DNA of 64,000 bases, from positions 13,100-77,099 of the IMG/VR virus record IMGVR_UViG_3300003322_000730, one strand, 5' to 3'. This DNA is from a virus. A program made the position numbers and the translations under genes. A model generated the notes under the pieces. It worked only from the letters and a program-made list of their open reading frames with translations. It was not told where the DNA came from and searched no databases. Position 1 is the stretch's first letter; every line of letters starts with the position of its first letter. Of the stretch, positions 4,960 to 59,781 are shown piece after piece.

Positions 4960-6030
4960 TTTTCAAAATAAATATGAAATAGGCAAAAACAGGCATATTT
5001 TAACAGGCAAAAGTGCGTTTCCAGTGAATAGGGGCACTTTTAGGGGTGCAAAGTGGTGTATAAATAATTCAGCAAAATACCGAAGGCATCAAGTGTTTTC
5101 CCGGGAAAATCGGAGACTTTCAAGCAGACCTGCATACAAAAGCACTAAAATATACCAAGCAGTATTATACATTCCCAGGATAACATTGCACCTAAAAGAA
5201 ACCACGTAATTCTACTTATAAGACGCGCGCGCGGAATGGTACTTATATAGACCAGCGGACTACCATATAAGCCCCGTATATGGCATTGGATAGGGCAAGG
5301 GACTGATGTGTGTACGTAGGAGTATAGAGACGAACAATAAGGGCATATACAGCAATAGAAGAGAATCAGACAAGAATATACTTTGTATAGTGGATAGTAA
5401 TGTGCCATACAGTACATTTTCATGATTCGATATACGGCAGAAACAGAGGGCTGACAAGGAAGTGGCAGGATCAGGGATTTTTACACTTTTTCGCCCCGTT
5501 TTTCTCTATGCATGCGGGCGAATCAGGATACCTATGCGAACACACCTATGAACGCCCCGGTTTTCGCGGAATAATACAACGGCCTTTTGTCTCCCTTGTG
5601 CATTTTTGCCTATACATAGAAACGGCTTTGATTAGTACTATTTTGCACTATTCACAGACACCTGCGCCAATGTATAGCAGGATCATGCATAACTAACTGT
5701 ATATCAGCTCACAACAGTAGAAAGTCTATTATGTAGTAAGTAATAGAACGCACCGTGGCCTGATTTGCTTTGCGCCGCAGAGGACTTTGGCAGGACCGGT
5801 TTAGGGGGGGTGGGGGTCGGCCGATTTGGGCAATTGGGAATTGTACACAAACTTTTCACAAAAAACGCCCTCACGGGCCTTCGGCCCTTTCCTGCCCTCT
5901 GCCAAACAATCCAGCGATCACCCTGTCACACCAAGCAACCACAGCAGATCACGTCTCACACGCAAGAAAACAGGCCAATCCAGCCATTCTGCTTTCATAA
6001 TCCTGACTAACATCCATAATCCACCTGAGA
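4960..6030. other. Divergent ~1 kb non-coding control region (candidate genome end / packaging site / origin)
   Basis: Gene strand switches here; no credible ORF; TACTTATA repeats, CGCGCGCG, G-tract at 5803-5816. Confidence 0.55.
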
Positions 6031-6062
6031 ATCCGTATCTTTCGCCAAAAAACTCGACAAAC

Positions 6063-6362
6063 ATGCAGAACACAAAGAAACTCTCACTTTTTCAGGTTGA
6101 CCCTTGGGATGGTCACTGCCTGAGTATTTGGTATTGGCGCACTTACCGCTATGGTAGATGGGATTATACCCGAACGCTGAATATTTCGTGGATGTGGTAT
6201 TGGTGGCGCAAGAATGGTGTATCTTCCCAGTGGGGGTATCGTAACAATGGGGCCAAGAAGTCAGATGGCGACACCTGTCTTGATCAAACACTCTCCTTGG
6301 GGTATCTTGTTTTCAATCATATCAACTGGAATCTGCAAGGTGTTTCAAAGTCTCAGATTTGA
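6063..6362 (+). CDS. Hypothetical Trp-rich protein
   Basis: Likely start MQNTKK after TATCTTTC promoter-like box. Confidence 0.55.
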   Translation: MQNTKKLSLFQVDPWDGHCLSIWYWRTYRYGRWDYTRTLNISWMWYWWRKNGVSSQWGYRNNGAKKSDGDTCLDQTLSLGYLVFNHINWNLQGVSKSQI

Positions 6363-6723: not shown

Positions 6724-6884
6724 GTTGATACCATCGGTAGTACCGATAGAACCCATTCAAAACCGGAGGTCTTTATACGCAAAATCAAGGTGGCCAAAAA
6801 TTTTCCGGCAGAAATTGTCCCTCACGGGCTTGACATTAAGTTAGAAATTGTTACTTTTGATTGAACATTAAAAGACGGTTGATT

Positions 6885-7256
6885 ATGTTGTCAGATTATT
6901 CAGACGAAGAGTTAAGAGACGAGTTGTCTCGACGACACTCAAAGCCAAAACATCTACTTGATTACTTTGCGAATCCAGAGGACCTTTACTCGGCTCATGG
7001 ACTTACACTTGTTCAGACCTGCGGTGCGTGTCCGGAGCAATATGATGTATTTCGTGGTGATGAACAGGTCGCCTATCTACGGCTAAGACACGGATTTTTC
7101 CGGGTTGATCTTGGAGAGTGTGGTGGTGAGATTATCGCTTCTGGTCATCCAAAGGGAGATGGGTGCTTTGAGCCGGACGAAAGGATGCATTTTATGCACC
7201 GGGCACTTAGAGCAATCATTTCCCGCATTCATCCAACAATATCAAGTAAATCATGA
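6885..7256 (+). CDS. Conserved hypothetical phage protein
   Basis: TCGACPEQYDVF...YLRLRHGFFRVD pattern recalled from diverse phages. Confidence 0.75.
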   Translation: MLSDYSDEELRDELSRRHSKPKHLLDYFANPEDLYSAHGLTLVQTCGACPEQYDVFRGDEQVAYLRLRHGFFRVDLGECGGEIIASGHPKGDGCFEPDERMHFMHRALRAIISRIHPTISSKS

Positions 7257-8656: not shown

Positions 8657-9160
8657 ATGATCTCAAACTTCCACCGCCAAATCTCCGAACACCGTCAGTA
8701 CTTGCTGACATACGCCAAGAAACTTTCCTGGCAAGACCAAGAAGCTGCTGAGGATCTTGTGCAGAACACTTACGTCGCGGCCATACGTTTCGAAAGCACC
8801 TTTCAGCCCGGGACAAACATGCGTGCCTGGTTGAAGACTATTTTGTACAACGATTTTGTCAACGGCTTCCGCCGGCAAAGAAAAGAAGCTGGTCGTGTTG
8901 ACTTTGATATGGTCTACTTGGGATACCAGGGGCCATCGGTGATTCCGCACAGAGATGAGGTAGGCGATGAAGTAAAGCAAGCAATCGCTAAATTGCACCC
9001 GAAAGACCGGAAGATTGTGGTAATGTCCTTTATTCAGGATTACACCTACGAAGAAATCGCCAAGGTTGTCGGAATTCCGTTAGGCACCGTTCGGAGCCGG
9101 CTTCACAGAAGCAGAAAGATATTGCAGCAGTCGCTGCGAGAATACCAAAGAGCAAGTTGA
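8657..9160 (+). CDS. ECF-type RNA polymerase sigma factor
   Basis: Region 2 AEDLVQNTY...GTNMRAWLKTILYN; region 4 YTYEEIAKVVGIPLGTVRSRLHRSR. Confidence 0.95.
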   Translation: MISNFHRQISEHRQYLLTYAKKLSWQDQEAAEDLVQNTYVAAIRFESTFQPGTNMRAWLKTILYNDFVNGFRRQRKEAGRVDFDMVYLGYQGPSVIPHRDEVGDEVKQAIAKLHPKDRKIVVMSFIQDYTYEEIAKVVGIPLGTVRSRLHRSRKILQQSLREYQRAS

Positions 9161-10791: not shown

Positions 10792-10839
10792 AATTAACAG
10801 AAATTAAAGTTAGATTTGCTTACATTAAAATAAACTCTC

Positions 10840-11085: not shown

Positions 11086-11093
11086 TATCTTTG
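11086..11093 (+). promoter_or_regulatory. Bacteroidota -7 promoter box upstream of terminase
   Basis: TATCTTTG. Confidence 0.6.
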
Positions 11094-11128
11094 GCTGACA
11101 TGCAATTAATAACCCAAGGGATACTTTA

Positions 11129-11728
11129 ATGGAAAAGCGCAATAAGAGGCAGCCCTTCATGGTTCCGCGAGAAGAGAACAGAACAGTAGTGGAGTTGTTT
11201 GAATACGGCAGCAAAGGTGACCGGGTCAGCAAAGGGAAGTTTGAACACGACGACTTGATTGACGCGGACCTGCCATCCAACATGAAGATGGTTTCCCGGT
11301 TCAACGGAGGAGTGCTTCCGAAATACGAGAACTTTCAGGACTTGTACATCAAAGGGGTTCAATATTTCAAGTGGGCCGTCGAAAATCCAATACAGAAAAC
11401 AGAATTGATCAAGGGCGGGGCGATGGCTGGATCACCAGGCACCATAGATGTACCGAGGCCATGGACCATTGCTGGTTTGCGGACGTGGTTGGGCATGGGT
11501 TCCAAGATATACGAGAAGTTTAGAAGTGGCGAAGGATACGAACAATTTCACCCGGTCATTGAGTTTTTCGAGGACTGCATCAGGACGCAGAAGTTTGAAC
11601 ATGCTGTGGTGGGTATTTACAACGCCGGCTTGGTAAGCCGTGATCTTGGATTGGCGGATAAAACAGAGGTCAAAGAAGAAATCAACATCAAGGCGCAGAT
11701 CATTGGGATGAAAATTATTGCTGATTAA
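11129..11728 (+). CDS. terS: Terminase small subunit (P22 gp3-like)
   Basis: RPWTIAGLRTWLG...IRTQKFEHAVVGIYNAGLVSRDLGLADK; coupled to terL. Confidence 0.9.
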   Translation: MEKRNKRQPFMVPREENRTVVELFEYGSKGDRVSKGKFEHDDLIDADLPSNMKMVSRFNGGVLPKYENFQDLYIKGVQYFKWAVENPIQKTELIKGGAMAGSPGTIDVPRPWTIAGLRTWLGMGSKIYEKFRSGEGYEQFHPVIEFFEDCIRTQKFEHAVVGIYNAGLVSRDLGLADKTEVKEEINIKAQIIGMKIIAD

Positions 11729-13185
11729 TGGAGAGCACAGATAAGGGGCAGATCATAGAATTCAGGGCCCACGGGAACTTAAAGCAAGTAGAAGCGTTTA
11801 AGTATTGGACGGATAAGTCTACTTACCATATAGTCTATGGAGGCAGTAAAGCGTCGGGCAAGAGCTTTTTAGGTTGCTCTCTTATACTTGCCGACGCCCT
11901 CATATATCCCGGAACTCATTATTTCATAGCCAGAAAGACACTTTCTGATCTTCGTAAGCACACTACAACTTCCATAGCGGAGGTGTTGAATGGTTGGGGT
12001 ATTCCTAGCAACATGTACCGGTATAACGGCCAAGACAACTTCTATCAATTCAAGAATGGCTCAAAGGTGTATTTTTTTGGCTGCGAACCGCGTCCGAGCG
12101 ACCCAAAATACACCAGATTAGGGTCAATCCAGATGACACGTGGTTGGATCGAAGAATCAGGAGAGGTTGAGGAAGCCGCCAAAAATGCCTTATCAGCTAC
12201 GATAGGTCGCTGGAAAAACGAAGAATACGGGCTATGGAGGAAGTTGCTGATGACTTGTAACCCAGATAAGGGCTGGTTGTACAGCGAGTATTATGAGCCA
12301 TGGAAGAACAATTCACTTGATAAGGACAAGAAATTCATCCAAGCCCTCCCAACCGACAACAAAATGCTGGATGATGGCTATCTCGAAGGTCTTGAACAAA
12401 GCTTGAACTACAATGAAAGACAACGTCTCCTTCACGGCAACTGGGAGTTTGATGATGATCCATCGGTGCTCATCGACTACGAAGCCATCATGGACATTTT
12501 CAGAAACTTCAGTGTTCCTCACGGAAAGAAATATATCACTGTCGACGTGGCCCGTATGGGAGGAGCCAGAATTGTGTGTGTCGAGTGGGACGGATATCGT
12601 GGTCACGTTCGCAGCTGGGACAGAGCCGAATTTCCGGAGACCTTGAAAAGGATTGAGGAATCCAGGATGAAGCTGGGAATCAGCCCCAAAGATGTACTGG
12701 TCGACGGTGATGGCATGGGTGCCGGCCTGGCCGACTTTGGCAGATACAGTGAGTTCAGAAACAACTTCCCTGCGGTTCCATCGAAAGATCAAAGAAAACG
12801 GAGGGACGCCAATGGAAATATCATCAAGGAGAACTTTGACAACCGCAAGTCTCAGATGGGGTTCTATATGTCAGACTTAATTAACGAAAGAAGGGTGTTC
12901 CTCACCTGTGAACGAGAGGAGGACAAAGTGTTGATCCGGCAGGAACTCGAACAGGTCCGGAAGAAGCGGATGGATTCAGATATGAAAAATGCGCTGGTGC
13001 CAAAAGAAGAAGTGACCAAGCGCCTTCGACGCTCCCCTGATTTCTGGGATGCCATCCTGATGCGTCACTTCTTCGAATACAAAGGTCAAGTAATTCAAAT
13101 CAAACAGAGAAATGGAAATGACAGAAACCTCTTCCCGGGCCTCCCAGACCGTCGCCGGTGGGAAAGGGCTGAATACAATCGATAA
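11728..13185 (+). CDS. terL: Terminase large subunit
   Basis: Walker A YGGSKASGKS, Walker B GWIEE, MTCNP, nuclease ITVDVAR and RSPDFWDA. Confidence 0.95.
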   Translation: MESTDKGQIIEFRAHGNLKQVEAFKYWTDKSTYHIVYGGSKASGKSFLGCSLILADALIYPGTHYFIARKTLSDLRKHTTTSIAEVLNGWGIPSNMYRYNGQDNFYQFKNGSKVYFFGCEPRPSDPKYTRLGSIQMTRGWIEESGEVEEAAKNALSATIGRWKNEEYGLWRKLLMTCNPDKGWLYSEYYEPWKNNSLDKDKKFIQALPTDNKMLDDGYLEGLEQSLNYNERQRLLHGNWEFDDDPSVLIDYEAIMDIFRNFSVPHGKKYITVDVARMGGARIVCVEWDGYRGHVRSWDRAEFPETLKRIEESRMKLGISPKDVLVDGDGMGAGLADFGRYSEFRNNFPAVPSKDQRKRRDANGNIIKENFDNRKSQMGFYMSDLINERRVFLTCEREEDKVLIRQELEQVRKKRMDSDMKNALVPKEEVTKRLRRSPDFWDAILMRHFFEYKGQVIQIKQRNGNDRNLFPGLPDRRRWERAEYNR

Positions 13186-16377: not shown

Positions 16378-16605
16378 ATGGACACAAAACTAGAATTTAC
16401 AACTGACTTCCTGATTAGTCGTGGATTTTCCGAGAAATCACAGGGCTATTATGTATCGCAAGATGCTCCGCACGGGGCTGAAATTTATGTGAACTACTAT
16501 CCGGGAGATGTTTCCTTCGGGATAGGCGGTATTTCTTTTGTGGTGCCAGATTGCACGAAAGAGGATCACATTGACAGATTGATCAAGTTCTTGAATATAG
16601 GATAG
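16378..16605 (+). CDS. Hypothetical protein
   Basis: 75 aa packed ORF. Confidence 0.6.
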   Translation: MDTKLEFTTDFLISRGFSEKSQGYYVSQDAPHGAEIYVNYYPGDVSFGIGGISFVVPDCTKEDHIDRLIKFLNIG

Positions 16606-16607
16606 CG

Positions 16608-16736
16608 ATGCGCGCGCTAGTCTTAAAGATCGCTATCTTTCTTTTATACTTTCCACTTCTGTGTCATTCTCAGGAGATAAGAGAGCGCATCCCTGACAGC
16701 ACCTACACTGCTGGATGGATATTGTTAACACAATAG
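16608..16736 (+). CDS. Putative secreted peptide precursor (42 aa, not in ORF track)
   Basis: MRALVLKIAIFLLYFPLLCHS-QEIRERIPDSTYTAGWILLTQ; signal peptide followed by Gln. Confidence 0.5.
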   Translation: MRALVLKIAIFLLYFPLLCHSQEIRERIPDSTYTAGWILLTQ

Positions 16737-16786
16737 CCACAAAGACAAAGTTAGATTTGTTGTCTTGACATTGCTTTTCATGAAGT

Positions 16787-16902
16787 TATATTTGCTTCCA
16801 GCATGTAGTCGAGTTTCCCTTACTGTATTATCAAGGCGGTAGAGACGCCACTTTGATAAATACAGTTTCTCTCGAAGCCCGGCTACTTCCGACGACATGC
16901 TA
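16787..16902 (+). promoter_or_regulatory. Late promoter and structured 5' leader RNA
   Basis: TATATTTG 16787-16794; AGCATGTAGTCG pairs with CGACGACATGCT; inner hairpin ACTGTATT-ATCAA-GGCG/CGCC-TTGAT-AATACAGT. Confidence 0.7.
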
Positions 16903-16933
16903 CGTAGTCAGAAACGCTAATCCAAATATATTC

Positions 16934-17560
16934 ATGGCAGTCACTTTATATGCTTGTCCAACGCCGACGGCACTCCCCGATGTAGACCCACCAGGTTGCA
17001 CAGTACAATATGGCAACATCATTGCCGTAGCCTTCCAAATAAAGCAGGCAACTCCGTCTTTCGATGCCACCACCATTAAGGCCCAAGCAACATGGACTCC
17101 GCTTTTAGCGTCCACTACTGCTACTGGCATCCGCTTGGTGCCTGCCAACAACTATACTACAACCCCAGGGGAGGCTATCACTGAGGGGGGTAACGATCAG
17201 ACTACTTTCCGTGGCCGTAAGAAGCTGAAATATGTAGGGTACACTGACGTGAACTTTGTGATGGAAGGTGTGTCTCCTGCGTTTGCAACATCCGTTCGTG
17301 ATCTTACCAAGTTCAGTGCACAGGCCGGACAGCGCAGCGTACTTCGCGCATTCTTGTTGACTGACGAAGATTATGTCATTTCCGCCAGCGATTTCAACGG
17401 CCTTGATATTCACGCATTGATTGTGATGGATGCTACCCAAGGCGGTTCTTACAAGCCAAGCAACGACTATGGAGTGATGTTCAGCCTTGACTATGGCTGG
17501 TCTCACGACATGATCGGAACGAAAGCCAGCTTTGACGTATCACTGCTTCAAAACCCATAA
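16934..17560 (+). CDS. Major tail (tube) protein
   Basis: CPTPTALPD...C...YGNIIAVAFQ and PGEAITEGG resemble Bacteroides B40-8-type structural proteins (recalled); ~208 aa beta-rich. Confidence 0.7.
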   Translation: MAVTLYACPTPTALPDVDPPGCTVQYGNIIAVAFQIKQATPSFDATTIKAQATWTPLLASTTATGIRLVPANNYTTTPGEAITEGGNDQTTFRGRKKLKYVGYTDVNFVMEGVSPAFATSVRDLTKFSAQAGQRSVLRAFLLTDEDYVISASDFNGLDIHALIVMDATQGGSYKPSNDYGVMFSLDYGWSHDMIGTKASFDVSLLQNP

Positions 17561-17562
17561 CC

Positions 17563-17784
17563 ATGGCTAAGAAACAAATAGAGCCATCGGGCCCGGAAAA
17601 AGGGTTCACTCGCCTAGAGAAAACAGGTCCAGATGGTGGATTCATTGACCTTCCTGAAAAAGATGCCAAGCGTTTGCTATCTTTGGAAAAAAAACTAGGT
17701 ATAGAGAATTACGTTTTACCAGCAACAGATGGCGACCCTGGATCAGAATCAGATACAACAAGTATGGGAGAAGCCGAAAAATAA
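17563..17784 (+). CDS. Small hypothetical protein
   Basis: Between tail tube and portal. Confidence 0.6.
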   Translation: MAKKQIEPSGPEKGFTRLEKTGPDGGFIDLPEKDAKRLLSLEKKLGIENYVLPATDGDPGSESDTTSMGEAEK

Positions 17785-19486
17785 ATCGGCAATTGATAGG
17801 GCCGACCTGGATAACAAGAGACAGTTGTTCCATGCGCAGCTATCAGTTGACAGAAATGATTCGAACTCATACCTGAATACGTATCTTTCATGGATCAGGG
17901 GGATTCTCAATAACGACGAGAAATTCTATAAGTTCGACAGCCTGCTTGCCTTCCCATTGGCATCTAATCACCTTATCAGTAAGGCGACAGATGAATGGAA
18001 CAAGGTTTTCAAGGCTCAGGACCGGGTAGAAGAATATAATTTTACGGAAGATGAAGCGGCGATAGACTTCCAGGCGTTCCTTGACAAAATTAATTTCCGC
18101 GCTACAATCGAACAGAACCTGTTCACCAAAGTAAAGCAGGCGGTCAATACCATAGCGGTAGTTGATATTCCTGTGATTACAGAGGGTGTGACAGGACTTT
18201 CTGAGCCATACGTTTACTTCATTGAAACGGGCCGGCTCAGGGATGTAGACGTTGACCATTCAGGTGCCATCAAATACGTGATGTTTGAGCGCGGCAAAAA
18301 GGGCGATCCTGATCACCGGGTAGTGTTCATCGATGAGGAGTATTACCGGGTATACCGGTTCCCCGAGAACTCAGAGATGTTGATTTTGGAAACAGAGTCG
18401 GCGCATGAGCTCGGTTATTGCCCGGCTGCGTTCTTGTGGAGTGATGTGGTTGATCCGGATAACCCGATCCGTAGATATAACTCCGTGTTGGAAATCTGTG
18501 ATGTGCTGGATGAATATGTGATGTGGAAGACCTTTGGGGATCACGTGGATCTCTATTCGTCCTTTCCGATCATGTGGAAATACAGCAATGAGTGCGATGA
18601 CAGTGATGTCGAAAAGAGCCCATACGGAGTTCCCATAGAATACGATCAGTTTGGTCGGCCGATACGGAAGACTCAAGATGATTACATTGGGCCCGGACAT
18701 CAGATAGACTTAACATTACCAGTCGGCGAAGGGGCAAACATGGGAGTGCCTGTTGGATTTGTTGATCCTAAGCCGGCGCTATTGGAATACAACCAAGAGA
18801 AACTCAGAAGGAAAGAGGTTCAGATTATCAAGCACCTTACCGGTGTCGACAATGAGATCCAGAATGAGAAAGCCTTCAACGAATCGCAGATCCGTTCTCA
18901 GTATGAGACAAGGCATTCAGTGCTCCGGTATTGGGCTGAGAACATGCAGGCGATCCACACGTTCCTTGTGAGCACGATTGCAAAGCTGCGATACCGGGAT
19001 GTGTTTGAAAGTGCCACGATCGACTACGGGATGGATTACTTCCTGTACGATACGATTACCGCGGATGTGGATTACAAAGCAGCGAAAGAAGCCGGACTTG
19101 CTCAATCGATCATCATGTTCCGCAGGGAGATCGTTCAGCAGATTGAAACACGCAACTCTCCGAACAAGAAATCCAGACTTGACCTGCTCATTGAACTGGA
19201 GCCTTATGTGGATGTTGACCTGAGTAGAATTGACAAAGGAATCCCGGAATACGAACTAAAAGCCAACTTCCAGCTTTACATTAACAAATTTGAGAGGGAG
19301 AACGGGGATATAGTCAGATTTGGCAAGGATATTGACTATGAGGATAAAATTGCACTAATACTTAAAACACTTTACGGATATGTCAAAGAAAACAGAAAAT
19401 ACCAAGAAAGCAACAGACTCGCAGACCCAGCGCTACGGCAACCTGGACAAGGAAAAGAAGTACCCGTTTCCAGCGGCGTGGCTTGA
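17729..19486 (+). CDS. Portal protein
   Basis: 585 aa; HELGYCPAAFLW portal-like motif; precedes scaffold and capsid. Confidence 0.85.
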   Translation: MATLDQNQIQQVWEKPKNKSAIDRADLDNKRQLFHAQLSVDRNDSNSYLNTYLSWIRGILNNDEKFYKFDSLLAFPLASNHLISKATDEWNKVFKAQDRVEEYNFTEDEAAIDFQAFLDKINFRATIEQNLFTKVKQAVNTIAVVDIPVITEGVTGLSEPYVYFIETGRLRDVDVDHSGAIKYVMFERGKKGDPDHRVVFIDEEYYRVYRFPENSEMLILETESAHELGYCPAAFLWSDVVDPDNPIRRYNSVLEICDVLDEYVMWKTFGDHVDLYSSFPIMWKYSNECDDSDVEKSPYGVPIEYDQFGRPIRKTQDDYIGPGHQIDLTLPVGEGANMGVPVGFVDPKPALLEYNQEKLRRKEVQIIKHLTGVDNEIQNEKAFNESQIRSQYETRHSVLRYWAENMQAIHTFLVSTIAKLRYRDVFESATIDYGMDYFLYDTITADVDYKAAKEAGLAQSIIMFRREIVQQIETRNSPNKKSRLDLLIELEPYVDVDLSRIDKGIPEYELKANFQLYINKFERENGDIVRFGKDIDYEDKIALILKTLYGYVKENRKYQESNRLADPALRQPGQGKEVPVSSGVA

Positions 19487-19940
19487 TAAGGATGTTGTTG
19501 TCGTGAAACAGGAGGCTTTGCGCGACATTTATGGCAACGGTCAACTCGTGGCGATCCCACATGCTCACCCGGTTCAGGTTTATCCTAAGCAGACCTATGA
19601 TGCATTGTCTATCGTTCCGGTAGGCGCCAAACAAAATGGCTTTGCTGATCAGGGACTGCAGGTGACTCCGCTTCACAGCACTTCCGAGCCCGACGAGGAC
19701 ATCCAGTGGGCAACCAATCCGCCAGCGGCCAACGTAGCGCTCACTGAGTTCGATGAAGCAGCCAAGAAAGCTGTTGCCATGGTAGAGAAAGGCACCGACC
19801 AGACTCCTGCCGAAGAGTTCAAAGAAAAATCAGACGAAGCTGCCAAAGAAGAAGGGACTTTGGTTGACGAGGATGAAGAAATTGCCAAGGCTATCGAAGC
19901 TGAAGAAGCTGACAAAAAGAAAGCCAACGGCAAAAAATAG
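19380..19940 (+). CDS. Hypothetical head-module protein, acidic C-terminus
   Basis: Overlaps portal end by 107 bp. Confidence 0.65.
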   Translation: MSKKTENTKKATDSQTQRYGNLDKEKKYPFPAAWLDKDVVVVKQEALRDIYGNGQLVAIPHAHPVQVYPKQTYDALSIVPVGAKQNGFADQGLQVTPLHSTSEPDEDIQWATNPPAANVALTEFDEAAKKAVAMVEKGTDQTPAEEFKEKSDEAAKEEGTLVDEDEEIAKAIEAEEADKKKANGKK

Positions 19941-19963
19941 TTTTCACTTAAATAATCGATTAC

Positions 19964-20845
19964 ATGCCACTTAAAGTAAAGAATGAAGAAGGTGTAGAGA
20001 TTGAGGTAGACCTTGATCAATACGCCGATGACGTAAAGGCCCACTTAGAGGGAAAGGGCCTTGTATGGAAGACCCAAGCAGAGCTGGATGCCGAATGGAA
20101 GGCCCGTGAGACAGAGACGATCAACACGACTACCAAAAAGGTTCACGGCGAATGGGAGGGTAAAGTAGAGGGTATCGTAGGGGAGAAGCGCCCTGATGGG
20201 GTTAAGGGTCTTGACTGGGCAACCGGTCACCTGACAAAGCTCAAAGAAAAGGCCAGTACTCCACCGCCGGTAGAACAACCGAAAGGTACTGTTGAAAGCG
20301 ATGCCCTGAAAGCACAATTGAAACAAACGCAGGATGAACTGGCCAACTTCAAGTCCTCTATTGAGAACAAGGAGAAGGAGGCCAAGAATCTAGCGAAAAA
20401 GACCGCATTGAAGTCTTCGATCAAAGCGCTGAACCTGTTGGGAGATTCTCCGGCAGAGAAGGCAGAAATGGCAGCGGGACTGGAAACCATTATTGGCTCC
20501 AAATATCGGCTGGAATTTGACGAAGATGGAGACCTGGCCCTTTATGACGGGGAGAATCTAGTGACAGATCCTGACGCAGGGAATGCGCCGATGAGAATCG
20601 ATAAGTTGGTGAAGGATAAGTTCAAAAACTTCCTTGCGGCCCCGAAAGAACAACCAAAGCCAACCGGCGGCAGCGGCACCAAACAAGAGGATGTAGGTGG
20701 CGTTACTTCGGATGGTACCCAATTCTTCAAGGGCAAGTCCCGAGATGAAATAAGGGAGAAAATGCAGGCAAAAGGATTCATCATGGGGTCACCGGCATAC
20801 AACAAGGTGATGGCCGAGTCCTTGAAGCAGAGTGGGCTCGAGTAA
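19964..20845 (+). CDS. Capsid scaffolding protein
   Basis: Charged coiled coil, GGSGT linker near C-terminus, directly before capsid. Confidence 0.8.
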   Translation: MPLKVKNEEGVEIEVDLDQYADDVKAHLEGKGLVWKTQAELDAEWKARETETINTTTKKVHGEWEGKVEGIVGEKRPDGVKGLDWATGHLTKLKEKASTPPPVEQPKGTVESDALKAQLKQTQDELANFKSSIENKEKEAKNLAKKTALKSSIKALNLLGDSPAEKAEMAAGLETIIGSKYRLEFDEDGDLALYDGENLVTDPDAGNAPMRIDKLVKDKFKNFLAAPKEQPKPTGGSGTKQEDVGGVTSDGTQFFKGKSRDEIREKMQAKGFIMGSPAYNKVMAESLKQSGLE

Positions 20846-20918
20846 AAATTGCTACTGCCTGGGGAACTTTGACGACGACATGCTAATCGATTGTTAAAAA
20901 ATTAACACAATTCAACCC

Positions 20919-21944
20919 ATGGCATTAACATTAACATTGCTTGAAAAAGCGGTTCAGCCGTCTACCGAGATGATGCAGTCCTTCGAGAACCGTGTTCCGA
21001 AGGACAACGTAATCAATGCATTCAAATCTGGTACCAATGCTGTAATCGACCCACAGGCTTACATTGAAGCCAAAGCCTCCCTGCGCCGCCCTGTTGACAT
21101 TGCGGTGGTGAAATCAGAGTCGTACTTCGTCAATACTGTACGTGAGATGAACCCGACGCCGAACACTGTCAGCACCGCGAAAGTGCCTTTGACATTCGTG
21201 ACAAAGACATTCAGCTTCCAGTTGTCTGAGCCTCTTGCTGCCGACAATTATATCCGCTACGAACGTCTGTTCCAACAAGCGGTTTTCGATGGTGTATGGT
21301 CTGCGATGATCCGCGACAACACCAAATCCTTGGAGGTTACCGCGATCTCTTACCTGGAAGCCAACAAGTGGGCAGTTCCGCCTACCTCCAATGTTCCAGG
21401 CGTAACTGTTGGTACTGGCGCCTACGAGATGGACCCGGATGATTATATCATCAAAGCCCCTGTTGTAATGCGTGAGCTGAATATGTTCCCGCGCTTCATG
21501 GATATTGGCAACGTGGCATCAATGGCCCGTCAGCGCGACATTGCAACTTTCGGACGGTACAACAACCGCAACTTGGATCAGTACAATGACCAGATGGACT
21601 TCTATTACTCGAACCGTATCGCGCCGACTTCCGGGGCAACCGAGACGCACTTCGTAGTCCCTGAGAATTCACTGGGCATCCTGAACTGGGTGGAATGGGA
21701 TGCGCGTAACAACACGCAGACTGACACTGGTCGCTTCACTACTGTTCAAGATCCGTACTTCGGGTTTGACTGGGGTGTGTATATCACCAAGGGCCGTGCT
21801 GATCAGAGCGCGGATGGTGGCGTAGGTTTGGAGCGTGCTTCCAACATTCGGTACGACTTCGCGGCATCCTTTGCCTTCGTTTCGCCGTACTCTTCTGTTG
21901 CCGGCACATCTCCGATCGTGAAGATGGATCTCGTAGAAGTATAA
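20919..21944 (+). CDS. Major capsid protein
   Basis: 341 aa after scaffold, strongly biased codons, ends PIVKMDLV; B40-8-like by recollection. Confidence 0.85.
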   Translation: MALTLTLLEKAVQPSTEMMQSFENRVPKDNVINAFKSGTNAVIDPQAYIEAKASLRRPVDIAVVKSESYFVNTVREMNPTPNTVSTAKVPLTFVTKTFSFQLSEPLAADNYIRYERLFQQAVFDGVWSAMIRDNTKSLEVTAISYLEANKWAVPPTSNVPGVTVGTGAYEMDPDDYIIKAPVVMRELNMFPRFMDIGNVASMARQRDIATFGRYNNRNLDQYNDQMDFYYSNRIAPTSGATETHFVVPENSLGILNWVEWDARNNTQTDTGRFTTVQDPYFGFDWGVYITKGRADQSADGGVGLERASNIRYDFAASFAFVSPYSSVAGTSPIVKMDLVEV

Positions 21945-22434: not shown

Positions 22435-22459
22435 TTAACACCTCATTTTGGAATCACAG

Positions 22460-22490
22460 AAAGATACCTTACTTTTAGGGTATCTTTTTT
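22460..22490 (+). terminator. Intrinsic terminator after capsid operon
   Basis: AAAGATACC/GGTATCTTT + T tract. Confidence 0.75.
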
Positions 22491-25017: not shown

Positions 25018-25796
25018 ATGAAGACGATTACATGCGGACCTTACACGTTAAAGATTTACGATTCGATTGAGAATATCCCGCCGTCCCGGGAGTCCCTGAT
25101 GCAGCAGTATCAGCTGGAGGAGTTCGGGATTGGTCATACATGGGAGTCGATTGATAGTCATCTGAGCTCTCTTTTGATGGCTGTTCACCAGAATGATTTA
25201 ACATCGGTGTACCAAGAGGTAGAGAACCTTAGACTGAACTATTACTCCATGGCTCAGGGATACAATCCGGAGCATCTATCCTGGCTCTGTTTGATCCAGT
25301 CGATCGACGGGGAGCCGTTCACAGATATGTCGGAGGAAAACCTGAAAGAGTGGAGCAAAAGACTCGGAGAGCAGGAAGATGGAGAGCTGGCGTGGAGGCT
25401 GGTGTTCGATGAAGTAAAAAAAAAATTTCCAGAGAACTTCGAATCCACTTTCCTGAATGGACCACTCCAGAACGCAGCCTGAGACTAATAAAGTCGTATT
25501 GGCTTGCCCGTATAGCCAACGTTGTAAATCCCTCGGAAGAAACTGCGGAGAACCTAAACCGGGCGATGGAAAAGCTTGCAAAGCAAAACACGCCAAAGAA
25601 GTTCACGGAGGGGTCGGGTAATGTATTGGTAGACCATCAAGCTTCATTCGAGAGGCAATGCGCCATGATTGAGAAGCATTTTCACATCAAGGCAAATGAC
25701 TTAACTTTGTACCAATTCATCAGCAGACTGGAAGCGATAAAAGAAGATTTGAAATCACAGTCCAAGAGCGGGCTAGTTACCGAACAACCAAAGTAA
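25018..25796 (+). CDS. Tail assembly chaperone pair G/GT joined by -1 shift at A10 (25416-25425)
   Basis: Frame 0 stops at 25482; -1 frame open from 25425 through 25566 ORF to 25796; upstream of tape measure. Confidence 0.8.
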
Positions 25797-26639: not shown

Positions 26640-29600
26640 ATGGCCGTTATCAAAGGGCAGGACATTGTTGATTTTGACGGCACCGCCAGAGAGATTGAAA
26701 AACTCGAACAGCGGTTCCTGGCTTATGGTAAAGCTTCGATTGGTATCATCGAAAAGATCACCGATGCCCGCGAGAAAGATATCGAAGCTGTTAAGCGACT
26801 AGAGGCCGCCCTGAAATCCATCAACGTCAAAAAGGGCGGAGGGGATGTTGGTATTGGATCAGTCGGAAAAGACATCGACAAGACAATATCTTCCATTGAG
26901 CGCTACAAGTCCATTTTGGACTCTATGGCTGATGTTTCCGCTCTCAGCGAGAAAAGTATAGCCGAACTGAAAGAAGGGGTCTCTGCTCTTAAAAGACAAT
27001 ACGACAACCTTGATCCTACTTCAAAGGATTTCGTTGCTGATCAGCAGCGTATAGGTAACCAGGTAAAAGTAGCCACTCAGGCTATCACTGCTCAAAGCCT
27101 TGTCATGAAGACAATGGTGAAGACGGCCAATGATGTCAATAATACCTACAATAAGCTCAGCCGGGAGACGGCAGATTTAAAGAATCAACTTCGGAATTTA
27201 CCAGGTGCTTTTGATTTGGTCACCGGCGCCATCAACAAGAATAACGCGCAGGCTGTAATCTGGCAGAAGACTATTGAGCGAAATGACGCTGCATTGAAGA
27301 AGATGGATGCCTCTATGGGCAACTATCAGCGAAATGTCGGCAACTATTCTTCTGCGTTCAAAGGGCTGAACCTGTCAATTTCTGGGTTAATAGCCCCGAT
27401 TCTTGGGGTGTCCACCGCTTACGAGGCTATGGCCAAGTCAATCCAGATCATCGACCAGATGACCCGGTTGAAACTTGGGCTAGAAGCCGTATCATCCAGC
27501 TCTCAGCAGGTAACCCGCCGTTGGCAGTTTTTGGCAGAGCTTGCTGATCGGACCGGTCAAGACGTTGAGAAGCTGACAGAAAACTATATTTCATTTGCTG
27601 GCGCTGCACGTAACACCAGCCTTGAAGGGGCAAAAGGAGATGCCATATTTAGGGCATTCTCGAATACTTTCGCGGCACTAGGGAAAAGTAGTGACGTGGC
27701 CAATAGGGGGCTGTATGCTATTCAGCAGATGATCTCGAAGACAAAGGTTAACTCAGAAGAGCTCAATCAGCAACTGGCCGAAGCCCTGCCAGGCGCGAAC
27801 AAGTTATTTGCAGATGCACTGGGTGTCAGCACGGCCAAGTTAGCCGACATGATGAAGAAAGGGGAAGTGTTGGCGATCGACGTTCTTCCAAAAGTTGCCG
27901 CGGCCCTGGAGAAGACATATGGAGAGAGGGCTCAAAAGAATATTGAAACAATATCTGGTAGCTGGAGCCGGTTAACAACTCAGTTTAAATTATTCCTTGA
28001 CGATCTCAACAAAGACAATGCAATCTCTGGATTCTTCGCCAGGCTCAATAACGGAATAGCTGATGCAATCCGGAACATGAGCGCCTTGCGTACCAGCAAA
28101 AATGATGTGATTGGCAGAGCTCAGTTGCTGGGCCAGAATCAAAGTACAGGGGCAAATCTCGTGGGAGCGTTTGTTCCCGGCATCAACCAAGGCAGGAATG
28201 TTTATAATGCTACTCAGCAGATAGGCGCAGAAAATGCCAACATCAAGGCTCAGGTCGATAAAGTACAAGCCGTATCTGACAATAAAAAGCGTATTGATAT
28301 TATCATGCGTGAGCAACAGGAGCTCAAAAAGGTTACCGCAGCATTGAAAGACTGGGAGGAGCAAACGAGTAACACTGTTATTCGCACAGAGGAAATGCGT
28401 GCAAAAACGGTCAACCTGAATATTGCAGTCGACAGACAAAGGAGGCTGGTAGAAGCACTTGGACAAGCCGAGATAAAAAGAGCCAATACGGCGAAAGAAG
28501 TAGCACCCAAAGATGCGCCGGCGGAGCCAACAGATCCAAAATCGTCTAAAAGAGTCCTTACTCAATTCGAAAAACTTGTCAAAGAAGCTGAAAAAGTCCG
28601 CGGCATAATCATCGATGATCTACTCGCCGACCAGAAGGCCGGACGTGCTTTGGAGCCATCTGATGAATCGGTTGAGAAGTTCAACAAGATCTATGAGAGG
28701 CTGCGGGAGATCAATAATATCATTGGAGAGCAGATGCCATCCAATCTCAAAGAACTCTACGACAAAATCAACAAGACTCCTGTGGATATCGCCGGGCAGA
28801 TACCTATTATCGGCATGGAGAAGCAGGATCAAACGCCTGCGGGCCCCGCTGCCTCTACTGGGGAGTATATTGATCTAACCAAGTATAATGCTTTATTGAA
28901 GGTTCATCAGGAAGAAAACGAGCTTCTCCGGAAGAAAGTAGGAGAGTACGGAATCCTGAAATACGTAAGCAAAGATTATACTGAAAAGCTTATATCGGAA
29001 CAGCAGAAGGTTCAGGAGTTAGAAAAGCAATTGGCTGTCGAAACGGTAGAGGCTAAGAAGCAAGCCATCAATGAGGAGCTTCAAGCTGAAAAGCAGAAGT
29101 TCCAGCAGATCATGGAGTATGCCAGGCTAGAGGCCCAAGGGAAAAGAGAAATCTATGAGCAGTCATGGAACTTGGCTCTTGAATCCGCCAATGCAATATT
29201 TCAAATAGCGCAGGACCAAAGAGCTGCTGATCTGGAGGCCAATCAAATGGCAATGGAGCACGAGTTATCACTTGTACAAGGTAATCAAGCAGCCCAGGAC
29301 CGTATCAAAAAAGAATACGCCAAGAAAGATCTAGAGCTCCGCCAGAAGCAAGCACGTCTCGAAAAAGCACAGGCGGCATTTTCTATTGGCATCAGCACAG
29401 CCCGTGCTGTAGTAAACGCATTGGCTACCGGTGGTCCTCCGTGGATTGGTATTGCCCTGGCTGCAATTGTAGGGGCAATGGGTGCAGTTCAGCTGGCTGC
29501 GGTACTTGCCAAGCCGCTTCCACAGTTCTACAAAGGAACCGACAACGCTCCGGAAGGTCCGGCATGGGTTGCTGAGCGCGGGCCGGAGATTGTGGAATCA

Positions 29601-29969
29601 AGAGGCAAAATGTCGTTGGTAAAAGACAAAAGTATCATACCTCTTCGCCGGGGGGATAAGGTTTATACCGCAGCAGAAACAAGGGCGCTTTTAAGTGGAT
29701 CTATGAGGGCCGACAGAGTAGATCAGGTATTGTCCCGCGGTATTGCGGCAGAGCGCAACAGGGCAGAAATTTCGGCAGCACAAGCTGCGATCATTGCCAG
29801 GCCATTGGGACAGCAAATTGACTACGATAAAATGACCAGTACATTTACCAAAGCTCTCGACAGCCGGCCACTTCATCAGACCCTTGTTGATGAGCAAGGC
29901 ATCCGTCACAGACACATTCGTCAGAACAGCACAACCACATACCATAACTCCAGATTCTCCCTTAAATAA
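26640..29969 (+). CDS. Tail tape measure protein
   Basis: 1109 aa helical; GNYQRNVGNY; QMISKTKVNSEELNQQLAEALPGA; KGT..APEGPAWVAERGPE. Confidence 0.95.
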   Translation: MAVIKGQDIVDFDGTAREIEKLEQRFLAYGKASIGIIEKITDAREKDIEAVKRLEAALKSINVKKGGGDVGIGSVGKDIDKTISSIERYKSILDSMADVSALSEKSIAELKEGVSALKRQYDNLDPTSKDFVADQQRIGNQVKVATQAITAQSLVMKTMVKTANDVNNTYNKLSRETADLKNQLRNLPGAFDLVTGAINKNNAQAVIWQKTIERNDAALKKMDASMGNYQRNVGNYSSAFKGLNLSISGLIAPILGVSTAYEAMAKSIQIIDQMTRLKLGLEAVSSSSQQVTRRWQFLAELADRTGQDVEKLTENYISFAGAARNTSLEGAKGDAIFRAFSNTFAALGKSSDVANRGLYAIQQMISKTKVNSEELNQQLAEALPGANKLFADALGVSTAKLADMMKKGEVLAIDVLPKVAAALEKTYGERAQKNIETISGSWSRLTTQFKLFLDDLNKDNAISGFFARLNNGIADAIRNMSALRTSKNDVIGRAQLLGQNQSTGANLVGAFVPGINQGRNVYNATQQIGAENANIKAQVDKVQAVSDNKKRIDIIMREQQELKKVTAALKDWEEQTSNTVIRTEEMRAKTVNLNIAVDRQRRLVEALGQAEIKRANTAKEVAPKDAPAEPTDPKSSKRVLTQFEKLVKEAEKVRGIIIDDLLADQKAGRALEPSDESVEKFNKIYERLREINNIIGEQMPSNLKELYDKINKTPVDIAGQIPIIGMEKQDQTPAGPAASTGEYIDLTKYNALLKVHQEENELLRKKVGEYGILKYVSKDYTEKLISEQQKVQELEKQLAVETVEAKKQAINEELQAEKQKFQQIMEYARLEAQGKREIYEQSWNLALESANAIFQIAQDQRAADLEANQMAMEHELSLVQGNQAAQDRIKKEYAKKDLELRQKQARLEKAQAAFSIGISTARAVVNALATGGPPWIGIALAAIVGAMGAVQLAAVLAKPLPQFYKGTDNAPEGPAWVAERGPEIVESRGKMSLVKDKSIIPLRRGDKVYTAAETRALLSGSMRADRVDQVLSRGIAAERNRAEISAAQAAIIARPLGQQIDYDKMTSTFTKALDSRPLHQTLVDEQGIRHRHIRQNSTTTYHNSRFSLK

Positions 29970-38194: not shown

Positions 38195-38258
38195 ATGTTT
38201 GTTCCTTACGTGACTACATTGTCGTATATTTGAAAAGTAAAATAAAAACTCGATAAAC

Positions 38259-38831
38259 ATGCAAAAATCAAAATTATTCATGTCTTTAGTGATAGAGACG
38301 GGGCTATTGGCCGAAATTGTGTCAAAGTGTAATAAATTAGAGTTCACAGAAGACATAGAACTATCAAAACTTGCGCTATTCTGTAAGGATATGGCCACAC
38401 ATGATATTGGAGACGAGTATAAAAAGCTCTCCGAAGAAAAGCGTGATCTTATGGATAAAATCATTGCCCCGTTCAATGATCGCATTTCTGAGATGACCAA
38501 TGCAGGTGCCAGTCAGGAAGAAGTTGAGGCTCAAAGTGCTATTTTCAATGCCGAGGCCAACAAAGCGCTGAACTCTAATGAAGACATAAAATCGATCAAC
38601 AGGAAAATAAGCAAACTGTTTGAAGAAAAGCCAACGTCAGAGATTCCTGTAGTTTACATATCAAACAAAGATTATAAATGTATATTTGATGACACAGAGA
38701 TGACTGATGAATATATGGGACTGACCCTTACTATGAAGGGATATGATGCATTAAAAGCGTTGGCAGCCAGAGGACATGTAGAGGTAAAGTCGGTAAACAA
38801 GCCGTCGGAAGAACTTGTAGAAAACCAATAA
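38259..38831 (+). CDS. Hypothetical helical protein, possible fibre chaperone
   Basis: After fibre; TATATTTG promoter 38225-38232. Confidence 0.6.
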   Translation: MQKSKLFMSLVIETGLLAEIVSKCNKLEFTEDIELSKLALFCKDMATHDIGDEYKKLSEEKRDLMDKIIAPFNDRISEMTNAGASQEEVEAQSAIFNAEANKALNSNEDIKSINRKISKLFEEKPTSEIPVVYISNKDYKCIFDDTEMTDEYMGLTLTMKGYDALKALAARGHVEVKSVNKPSEELVENQ

Positions 38832-47783: not shown

Positions 47784-47819
47784 TGCTGTATTTTTGGTTG
47801 AAACCAAACGACATGCTTT

Positions 47820-48482
47820 ATGAATCTGGATAACTTGGATCTGCTGTTTCCCGTCGGGAGATCTGCATACCGCAATATCAAAATCCCTATCAAATCGGCA
47901 TTTGAATATGCTGGCATAGACACCCCGAAGGCAGCCGCCTTGTTTTTGGCAAATTGTGCTCATGAAACGGGTGGCTTTACATCATTCCGGGAGAATACAT
48001 TGTATACAGCTGATAGATTGGCTGAGGTTTGGCCTGGCCGCTTTAAAGGACCTGATGGAGAGCCCAACGAGCTGGCCAGAAAACTGCACCGGAAACGGGA
48101 TGCCATCGCTGATCACGTGTATGCAAATCGCCTATCGAACGGAGACGTTAAATCCCATGATGGATCTCGATACATTGGTCGTGGGCTACCTATGCTTACC
48201 GGTAGATACTGGTATACCAAGATGGACCAGGAATTCAACATGAATGGCAAGCTGCTAATGATCCCATCGATGTTGGAAGACAAATATTGGTCGGCAATGG
48301 CGGGCGGGTTCTTCTGGAAAGAAAAGAAGATGTCCCAGTATGCTGACAGAATCGGCAACAGAAAGGATAAGGACACCGGGATTGACTTGGCTATCGTGCA
48401 GGCCCGTAAAGCGTGGCAGGGAGGCTCTTTGGGGCTAAAAGAAGTGAATGAATGGTATCAGAAATTTATTAAACTGCTGTAG
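47820..48482 (+). CDS. Endolysin, glycoside hydrolase family 19
   Basis: FLANCAHETGGF, YANRLSNG, DGSRYIGRGLPMLTGR. Confidence 0.92.
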   Translation: MNLDNLDLLFPVGRSAYRNIKIPIKSAFEYAGIDTPKAAALFLANCAHETGGFTSFRENTLYTADRLAEVWPGRFKGPDGEPNELARKLHRKRDAIADHVYANRLSNGDVKSHDGSRYIGRGLPMLTGRYWYTKMDQEFNMNGKLLMIPSMLEDKYWSAMAGGFFWKEKKMSQYADRIGNRKDKDTGIDLAIVQARKAWQGGSLGLKEVNEWYQKFIKLL

Positions 48483-58594: not shown

Positions 58595-59584
58595 TCATTG
58601 TACCAGCCGGCTTAAATAATCCAGCTTTTGCTTGCTGGGGAACCGGCTTCTGTAGTGTTCTGTTGTGGATATTTTTGAGTGGCCCAGGGCCTCCGAAACA
58701 ACCACCATAGGCACTTCTTCTTGCAGCAGGTGGTTGGTAAAGCTGTGACGTGCCGTGTAGCTTCTGAGATCTCCTTTCAGCCCCAGATCATCCCCGATCT
58801 GCTTCATGGCTTTGTTCATCAACAGGATGAAGTACTTCTTCTTGTCCTCCATCTCAATGGGCGTCATGCTGTCGGTGAATATCGGGAACAGATAAGAATT
58901 TCCGAATGTAGTGCTGCCCCATCTACTGATAATTTCCAAAGATTTCGGGAATAACACCCCTTCAATCTTGATGATCCTTTTTGATTTCGCCCGGGACTTC
59001 TCGCGGACAAAGACAAATTTCCGTTCTTCCAAGTCGATATTGGTCCATCTCAGAAGACAAATGTCCTTTGCATTCATACCGTTCGAAAAATATGAGAAAA
59101 GCCACATGTCCCGCAGAAACGCCTGCTTACTGTCTACGCATGGATAATCAGCAATCATCTGAATTTCCTCTTTTGTCCGAGGCTGGCGGGTGTTGCTTTC
59201 CGTGGGAACCGTGAAGCCGCCGTTTCCGAATGGATAATGTTCGTACTTCACCAGCCCCTCAATCATTGCTTGGCGGTACATGAACCGGATTTGGTTGACA
59301 TACATGCCAATTGTGGTAATGGATGCAGCGGTTCCCGGGTTTTTGGGGTCATGGCTTTTGTTGAGCTTCCCGTGTTTCAACATCCACGACTCATATTCTT
59401 TCAGCATCTGCTGGGTAATGTCCGCGAAAGTGATCTCACCTTTTCTTTTCTTGAACTTCCAGAACCTTTCCAGTGATCTGGCAGCGCCAGCGGTGATGCT
59501 GGAGTGGCTGAATTTTCCAGCGGCAAAAAGCTCTTCGGATCGGTGGCGCAGACGTGCGGCTATTTTGTGTTTGGTGGGGGTCAT
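58595..59584 (-). CDS. int: Tyrosine recombinase / integrase (SAM-like + catalytic domains)
   Basis: FSYFSNGMNAKD, REKS, YTARHSF, VSEALGHSKISTTEHY; start MTPTKH by ATGA overlap. Confidence 0.92.
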   Translation of the reverse strand: MTPTKHKIAARLRHRSEELFAAGKFSHSSITAGAARSLERFWKFKKRKGEITFADITQQMLKEYESWMLKHGKLNKSHDPKNPGTAASITTIGMYVNQIRFMYRQAMIEGLVKYEHYPFGNGGFTVPTESNTRQPRTKEEIQMIADYPCVDSKQAFLRDMWLFSYFSNGMNAKDICLLRWTNIDLEERKFVFVREKSRAKSKRIIKIEGVLFPKSLEIISRWGSTTFGNSYLFPIFTDSMTPIEMEDKKKYFILLMNKAMKQIGDDLGLKGDLRSYTARHSFTNHLLQEEVPMVVVSEALGHSKISTTEHYRSRFPSKQKLDYLSRLVQ

Positions 59585-59781
59585 GCTTCTCTCACGATTA
59601 TATGATCTGCGTAGCTCCATTCGCACAATAGCCTTGCCTTCCAATTTTCCGCTGCATTCTCGCAAATCGAATCCTCTTCGCGGCTACTAAACCCTTCGGG
59701 GATCTTAACGTCTATCGTTTCCCCATAGTGATGTGAGGAATCTGGGGTTCTTACGGATACTGCTATGGTTAATATTTTCAT
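59581..59781 (-). CDS. Small hypothetical protein coupled to integrase
   Basis: ATGA overlap. Confidence 0.6.
   Translation of the reverse strand: MKILTIAVSVRTPDSSHHYGETIDVKIPEGFSSREEDSICENAAENWKARLLCEWSYADHIIVREA

Follow-up and report, generated by a model that had tools for sequence, protein, structure and literature searches.

We analyzed a 64,000-nucleotide window of virus record IMGVR_UViG_3300003322_000730, which spans positions 13100-77099 of the 77,099-bp genome of a phage (GC content 45.6%). The DNA sequencing run that resembles the source of this sequence is a root metagenome. The subject of the analysis is a 12-nt element, named X, at the predicted 5' end of a late leader RNA, together with four complementary sites, named boxes M1 to M4, that lie around the starts of virion genes; all positions are those of the window. 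Genes were called from open reading frames (ORFs) plus homology, and the portal, tube, and capsid proteins share 23-29% identity with those of Bacteroidota siphophages, namely B40-8, Croceibacter phage P2559S, and Flavobacterium and Elizabethkingia phages. The late genes on the + strand begin with the small and large terminase genes (11129-13185), which are followed by three to four genes of unclear role and a 328-nt gap. After the gap come a gene at 16934 encoding 208 amino acids, the portal gene (17729-19486), a scaffold-position gene, the capsid gene, and a strong terminator (22458-22489, + strand, from the terminator scan) that ends the capsid operon. Beyond this terminator lie the head-tail and tail genes, and then the tape measure gene (26640-29969). 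The order terminase-tube-portal-x-scaffold-capsid is kept in every relative that we examined.

The protein encoded at 16934-17560 (+ strand) matches B40-8 MP2, which is annotated as 'major tail protein 2', and the 'tube protein' of PDB entry 9wwa_N (E 7.5e-7), while the gene at 20919-21944 (+ strand) encodes the MP1-type major capsid protein (phrog_7231), with the close capsid homologues P0001-P0012 at 55-91% identity. These matches confirm the tail tube and major capsid identities given to the two genes in the original prediction. The tube gene is situated between the terminase and portal genes and not 3' of the head genes, an order kept across the B40-8-like Bacteroidota siphophages, and several records of these phages name the protein of the tube gene 'major head protein'. 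The scaffold-position virion protein gene (phrog_7970; 19964-20845, + strand) was assigned by synteny with B40-8, P2559S, and TCUEAP2. Further downstream, the gene at 25018-25482 (+ strand) is a homologue of a tail assembly chaperone (phrog_8914), and its tblastn match in phage TCUEAP2 overlaps a gene annotated as 'tail assembly chaperone'. The 154-residue product matches just the first 145 of the 250 positions of phrog_8914, and the overlapping ORFs 25457-25621 and 25566-25796 come next; a programmed G/GT-type frameshift would be compatible with this layout of the region 25018-25796. Shine-Dalgarno words are absent from the start regions of this phage, and its promoters resemble the Bacteroidota TAnnTTTG type.

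A terminator-like hairpin at approximately 16600-16638 closes the genes upstream of the tube leader. The terminator tail CTTTCTTTT occurs in three copies (9215, 16637, and 55806), each 3' of a hairpin in non-coding DNA, and appears to be the usual terminator tail of the phage. The promoter predicted for the tube-portal-scaffold-capsid operon, TTGACA-N16-TATATT (16765-16794, + strand), is homologous to the tube promoter of L001, a related metagenome contig described below. Its -7 box TATATTTG at 16787-16794 conforms to the TAnnTTTG form recognized by the Bacteroidota primary sigma factor, for which the promoter consensus is -33 TTTG and -7 TAnnTTTG (PMC7366714), and transcription is predicted to start near 16800. 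The 13-mer AAAGTTAGATTTG, which holds the -7-type box TAGATTTG, is identical at 10806-10818, after the pre-terminase terminator, and at 16747-16759, approximately 35 nt 5' of the tube promoter; a further word, AAGTTAGA, has four of its five copies in non-coding DNA and is also found at 6838 and 8499. These words may represent a second promoter class. In addition, 16779-16794 (CATGAAGTTATATTTG, which holds the -7 box) is complementary to the tube start region 16921-16936 (CAAATATATTCATG), so that transcripts with a start 5' of 16779, whether they arise by read-through or at the TAGATTTG box, are predicted to fold with the tube ATG sequestered (z -4.2), and transcripts from approximately 16800 are not.

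X, AGCATGTAGTCG (RNA AGCAUGUAGUCG), occupies 16800-16811 on the + strand, the first 12 nt of the predicted leader, and was recognized in duplex scans as a candidate antisense seed. The 134-nt leader is predicted to fold with a 5'-terminal rod (z -3.9), which is shut by the pairing of X with a proximal partner, X', at 16874-16886 (+ strand; pair probabilities of 0.84-0.92); the minimum-energy fold includes the pairing of X with CGGCTAC (16880-16886). Within the rod is a long imperfect hairpin (16822-16866, + strand; -19.7 kcal/mol, z -5.5) followed by TTTCTCTC, a possible attenuator, which the terminator consensus scan did not list. An RNA that stops after this hairpin and the following UUUCUCUC (16800-16875) is predicted to have its first 9 nt unpaired, and these are complementary to M1 on the long form.

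The 13-mer CGACGACATGCTA has exactly two copies, at 16890-16902 and 20873-20885 on the + strand, which end 32 nt before the tube ATG (16934) and 34 nt before the capsid ATG (20919), respectively. A partial third copy, the 10-mer ACGACATGCT, lies at 47808-47817, 2 nt 5' of the endolysin ATG at 47820 (phrog_181), and 11 of the 12 positions of X can pair with 16890-16901. All of these had been pointed out in the original prediction, and our re-reading of the sequence agrees with it on the coordinates, the distances to the two ATGs, the endolysin copy, and the complementarity. The exact repeat by itself is weak evidence, because the 77-kb genome contains 113 direct 13-mer pairs; both copies are non-coding in three of them. 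The 10-mer core is the sole one of 244 10-mers with at least three copies whose copies are all non-coding. The box that contains it before the endolysin gene (47807-47818, + strand; -13 to -2 relative to the ATG) is a weak one, with -9.7 kcal/mol and rank 438 in the duplex scan. CTCGA and GCTACT, which had also been noted before both copies, are indeed present (16871-75 and 16882-87; 20837-41 and 20851-56), but they were rejected as signals: they are spaced differently at the two sites, and words of this length should recur by chance in any two stretches of 50 nt. Upstream ORFs of 7 and 5 codons from the ATG within the 13-mers were likewise rejected, as the L001 boxes contain no ATG and an insertion in a rhizosphere relative shifts the frame. 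The 13-mer as the spacer, -10, or -35 element of an extracytoplasmic function (ECF) sigma factor promoter was discarded for its inconsistent geometry. Base pairing to 16S rRNA, suggested by a resemblance, was set aside as well.

We computed the duplex energy of X at every + strand position of the whole 77-kb genome. The four best sites are 25024-25036 (-16.8 kcal/mol), 19956-19968 (-16.0 kcal/mol), 20872-20885 (-15.4 kcal/mol), and 16889-16902 (-15.2 kcal/mol), and the fifth-ranked site has -14.2 kcal/mol. The lowest-ranked of the four is box M1, which holds the first 13-mer at -45 to -32 of the tube ATG and is the alternative partner of X in the leader. At the scaffold-position gene, the first ATG (19964) is overlapped by box M2 (TCGATTACATGCC, rank 2); a second ATG at 19983 could be the true start, in which case M2 would lie at -27 to -15 and the argument would be unchanged. 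Box M3 holds the second 13-mer at -47 to -34 of the capsid ATG, and box M4 (ACGATTACATGCG), the best site, covers codons 3-6 of the 25018 gene. M2 and M4 have the 11-mer CGATTACATGC in common. The box consensus, CGAYKACATGC (RNA CGAYKACAUGC), is thus represented by four sense-strand copies at virion-gene starts and one inverted copy at the predicted +1, and the copy-to-copy differences in the window preserve pairing, being C/U facing G. M2 and M4 sit in RNA predicted to be unstructured, and M3 forms the 5' arm and loop of a weak intergenic hairpin (20868-20898, + strand; -7.3 kcal/mol, z -2.9). The two competing local partners of the 5' end that had been proposed are both real, but the proximal one, X', is preferred and is made earlier in transcription: the X:M1 helix, when forced, costs 2.8 kcal/mol and has an ensemble probability of approximately 0.17. 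Weaker resemblances to the box also exist. A box-like word, GGCTGACATGCA (11093-11104, + strand; -13.6 kcal/mol), lies immediately 3' of the -7 box TATCTTTG in the small-terminase leader, and box-like words with one extra base lie on the ATGs at 6063 and 38259. The latter belong to the 16-mer ACTCGAYAAACATGCA, present at 6052-6067 and 38248-38263 with one difference, and the ATG in each copy is a likely gene start, that at 6063 in frame with ORF 5826-6362.

All four top sites fall within -60 to +30 of + strand gene starts, a class that makes up 6.9% of the genome, and shuffles of X that preserve CAUG place on average only 0.34 of their four top sites in start regions. The pattern CGA[CT][GT]ACATGC has four copies on the + strand, and all of them are near starts (p 2e-5). 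The start-region placement of the four best complementary sites is far beyond chance. When each 12-mer of 16760-16934 was scanned against the scaffold start and the capsid leader, the optimum was found at 16800/16801 (z -5.4 to -5.8), and X was beaten or equalled by none of the 2143 background 12-mers. The optimal antisense 12-mer coincides with the +1 predicted from the promoter.

The pattern recurs with other sequences in L001, a metagenome contig that is GC-rich, shares the gene order, and has 43% capsid identity; it is the one relative in which the pattern is clearly replicated. The L001 tube promoter is homologous to that of the window (CTTG[A]CATTGCT ... TATnTTTG, with 11 of 2000 shuffles scoring equally well), and its equivalent of the -7 box is TATCTTTG, while the two leaders are unrelated over their first 40 nt. 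The predicted L001 5' end, GCUGCUGUGCCG, pairs with a proximal partner to shut a 5'-terminal rod (z -3.2), and in both leaders an alternative box partner lies immediately 3' of the rod. In L001, this partner is GGCAGAGCAGC in the tube leader. Three further sites are complementary to this 5' end: GGCGGAGCGGC precedes the scaffold gene and lies in the 5' arm and loop of a terminator-like hairpin of -25.7 kcal/mol, GCAGCAGC is located at the scaffold ATG, and CCAGCAGC lies 5' of the capsid gene. When the regions upstream of scaffold and capsid were set beforehand as targets, shuffles of the L001 5' end gave p 0.002-0.014, and the 12-mer scan likewise peaks at the predicted start. AGCAGCA has 10 copies in the 14.9-kb L001 locus, four of which are within the tube, scaffold, and capsid leaders. 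The L001 box copies differ by two A/G facing U, and pairing is kept.

Relatives other than L001 gave a mixed picture. A hairpin 20-35 nt 5' of the capsid ATG is also present in B40-8, L001, L002, and L004. A 208-nt piece of a relative from a rhizosphere run aligns from 20871 onward and is unalignable upstream, with differences within approximately 30 nt of the alignment ends unlisted. The tube leaders of B40-8, P2559S, TCUEAP2, and tant8-1 are short. Purine-rich CAAAGGG(T/A) words occur in the tube leaders of P2559S (L006, ~4155), TCUEAP2 (L007, ~2215), and tant8-1 (L008, ~1940), and AAAGGG(A/T) lies 8-15 nt 5' of the scaffold-position genes in the same three phages; this box is Shine-Dalgarno-like, yet the phylum is said to lack such signals. 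No relatives were found in searches of viral contigs with the capsid protein, a 21-sequence capsid alignment, and a portal alignment, or in two scans of genome contigs, and megablast against phage records gave no match. Within the window, Rfam returned no family match at the gathering score for the whole stretch, and ARAGORN found a single tRNA-Thr at 204-294 on the - strand.

On this evidence, we propose that X acts as a leader-borne antisense seed that pairs with the start-site boxes of the late mRNAs, probably between molecules, and we give this reading a probability of roughly 0.45. Such pairing would set the translation or processing of the mRNAs and hence the relative yield of the virion proteins. 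In the full-length leader, X would be mostly locked in the 5'-terminal rod by its partner at 16874-16886; a short RNA ending after the hairpin 16822-16866 and UUUCUCUC would free X for action between molecules. At the scaffold-position and chaperone genes, where a box lies over the start region, pairing would most plausibly block initiation, and repression is the most likely effect at these two boxes; in the tube and capsid leaders, it would remodel small hairpins. The analysis shows the sequences and where they lie, the predicted folds with their energies, and the L001 parallel; the transcript start, the short leader RNA, the pairing in the cell, and the sign of its effect are inferred. Because the two phages keep the promoter but differ in the 5' end, and because each has boxes at the same genes that match its own 5' end, as would be expected from co-evolving RNA partners, the antisense-seed reading is favoured. 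Since M4 lies beyond the operon terminator, the X:M4 pairing would have to occur between molecules, and, with X locked in the full-length leader, action between molecules is likelier than a 4-kb loop.

Several observations weigh against the antisense-seed reading. The transcript start is a predicted one, and the second -7 box TAGATTTG (16752-59) could yield longer transcripts with X internal; X is paired in the full-length leader with a probability of ~0.9; and no U-tract follows the leader hairpin of L001, where a short RNA with free X is not evident. M1 and M3, at 32-47 nt 5' of their ATGs, are beyond the ribosome footprint. L004 (43% identity) is ambiguous, as its best leader 12-mer is internal and matches the scaffold start and a site within the tube gene, and the X/box pattern was seen in none of B40-8, P2559S, TCUEAP2, and tant8-1, which have the same gene order. 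Other points bear on whether the pattern arose by chance, with some 11-13-nt repeats expected in 77 kb, a start-codon context bias of the AC-ATG-C type, and post-hoc selection accounting for the rest. Such an origin would fit the 113 direct 13-mer pairs and the unclear replication in L004 and the more distant phages. Four sites at -15 kcal/mol or better are ordinary for a random 12-mer of the composition of X (mean 2.8), and only their placement is unusual. ACATGC is favoured at start codons in this genome (10 of its 27 copies are near starts, and four are true start codons), and the start-region matches are therefore inflated; M4 is partly fixed by the Thr-Ile-Thr codons, which are conserved in L001. 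However, all four top sites fall in a class that covers 7% of the genome, the ATG within M1, M3, and M4 is not the start codon of the gene, the unbiased 12-mer scan has its optimum at the predicted +1 in two phages, and the replication in L001 was obtained on pre-set targets (p ~0.01). We consider an origin by chance and context bias improbable.

The boxes could instead be RNA sites for a protein, either a translational regulator of the phage or host or a sequence-specific endoribonuclease responsible for processing of the late polycistronic mRNA, with X only masking M1 in cis or being incidental. Direct sense-strand copies at the starts of four virion genes would suit such a site, as would the position of M3 and of the L001 box at 7034, each the 5' arm and loop of an intergenic hairpin and so a typical protein or RNase target, and the recurrence of the pre-capsid hairpin in B40-8, L001, L002, and L004. 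A protein site leaves unexplained why an antisense copy stands at the predicted +1 in two phages with unrelated boxes and why the copy differences are wobble-compatible, and no candidate protein was identified; we regard it as unlikely. An inverted DNA repeat is equally compatible with a site acting at the DNA level, and the repeat alone cannot separate DNA from RNA function. X spans +1 to +12 of the promoter, the classic operator position, and could possibly be an operator at +1; the phage also encodes an ECF-type sigma factor (8657-9160, + strand; Pfam Sigma70_r2 and r4_2) and a tyrosine integrase (58595-59665). Late-regulator operators, ECF sigma promoter elements, and recombinase inverted repeats all come into consideration. 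Upstream of the capsid copy is GGAACTT, and GAACTTTG is similar to a -7 box. The shared sigma or promoter site envisaged in the original prediction is nevertheless disfavoured, because M2 and M4 lie on or inside coding starts, where promoters would give truncated messages. A GGAAC-like -35 and a CGT-like -10 at fixed spacing are not shared by all copies, the GGAACTT-like word being confined to the capsid copy, and no -35-like word stands at a constant distance from the copies. Of the five copies, four have the sense orientation. An inversion would not switch the promoter, which is not enclosed by the X/M1 repeat, and the arrangement of Bacteroides-type invertible segments, with repeats flanking the promoter and both orientations in the DNA, was not found; the DNA contigs of the source sample contained no rearranged joints, which is weak evidence since contigs drop rare forms. 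A DNA-level element of any of these kinds thus appears quite improbable. Lastly, intramolecular pairing of the 5' end with the capsid copy, at a distance of 4 kb, had been suggested to loop out or skip the portal-scaffold segment and thereby tune tube versus capsid output. The capsid-copy duplex is as stable as the local one (-15.4 vs -15.2 kcal/mol), and both sites are on one predicted operon, between the terminators at ~16600-16638 and 22458-22489. On the other hand, the local partners X' and M1 are transcribed earlier and favoured, translating ribosomes would clear the 4-kb loop, and M4 lies beyond the terminator. Nothing points to skipping, and the lack of joints in the DNA contigs says nothing about RNA. 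Of that suggestion, the part that stands is a real element common to the tube and capsid leaders and complementary to the predicted 5' end, for which the four-box set and the L001 parallel favour an RNA-pairing function, while the long intramolecular loop has no evidence in its favour and is very improbable.

How tailed phages set very different copy numbers of their virion proteins from one late transcript is poorly understood, and in the Bacteroidota, where initiation is not driven by Shine-Dalgarno sequences, RNA-based regulation is barely explored. The X/box pattern, repeated with other sequences in L001, suggests that the output of virion proteins is controlled by RNA pairing in a way not described before. 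If this is true, a leader seed and matching boxes that co-vary between distant relatives would constitute a compact, testable control of this output and a new type of phage riboregulator that targets the structural genes of its own phage, described for no phage so far. More tentatively, there may be a lineage of Bacteroidota siphophages in which a seed in the first dozen nucleotides of the late mRNA co-evolves with boxes at the tube, scaffold, capsid, and chaperone genes, and in which a switch between the locked rod and the free seed coordinates the stoichiometry or timing of the virion proteins.

There are both similarities and differences between this putative control and known RNA systems. 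In RNA phages such as MS2, with its coat-replicase coupling, an upstream sequence pairs with a distant start region and sets the relative protein yields. Distant start-region pairing on one RNA is also the picture drawn in the original prediction; however, the helices of MS2 lie within a compact folded genomic RNA and are opened by translating ribosomes, whereas here they would reach 3-8 kb across translated genes, with one target beyond a terminator. In the case of P1/P7 c4, a regulatory RNA from the leader of the transcript that bears its targets pairs downstream, including with the ribosome-binding region (PMC5320573). The leader described here would work most like c4, with which it would share the pairing of X with M1, M2, and M3 on the same predicted operon and the position of M2 over the ATG at 19964. 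However, c4 is a three-stem RNA that is released by RNase P, pairs through its loops, and controls an antirepressor in the immunity region, whereas here pairing would be carried by the very 5' terminus, several virion genes would be targeted, and the host belongs to the Bacteroidota. The leader is not a C4 family member, because no Rfam family, the C4 covariance model included, gave a match, either across the window at the gathering score or in 16600-17000 at E up to 5. In the Gifsy-1 prophage, one promoter gives both a short terminated leader, IsrK, and a read-through mRNA, on which the short form acts in trans (PMC4825925). Similarly, the leader hairpin followed by UUUCUCUC lies 5' of the sequestering partner X', and the short form is predicted to be complementary to the long form; in contrast, IsrK activates a single upstream-ORF start by refolding, whereas here there would be at least four targets, the termination at the hairpin is putative, and L001 lacks the U-tract. 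GibS of Bacteroides thetaiotaomicron, in a phylum without classical Shine-Dalgarno use, pairs through a single-stranded 5' seed across the start codons of its target mRNAs (PMC7366714) and so sets a precedent for such seeds in this phylum, but it is a stand-alone chromosomal small RNA with a 30-50 nt seed region, in contrast to the proposed 12-nt seed at the head of a phage mRNA leader. What sets the arrangement apart from c4, IsrK, and GibS is that the candidate seed stands at the very 5' terminus of a late structural operon, with several virion genes as its predicted targets.

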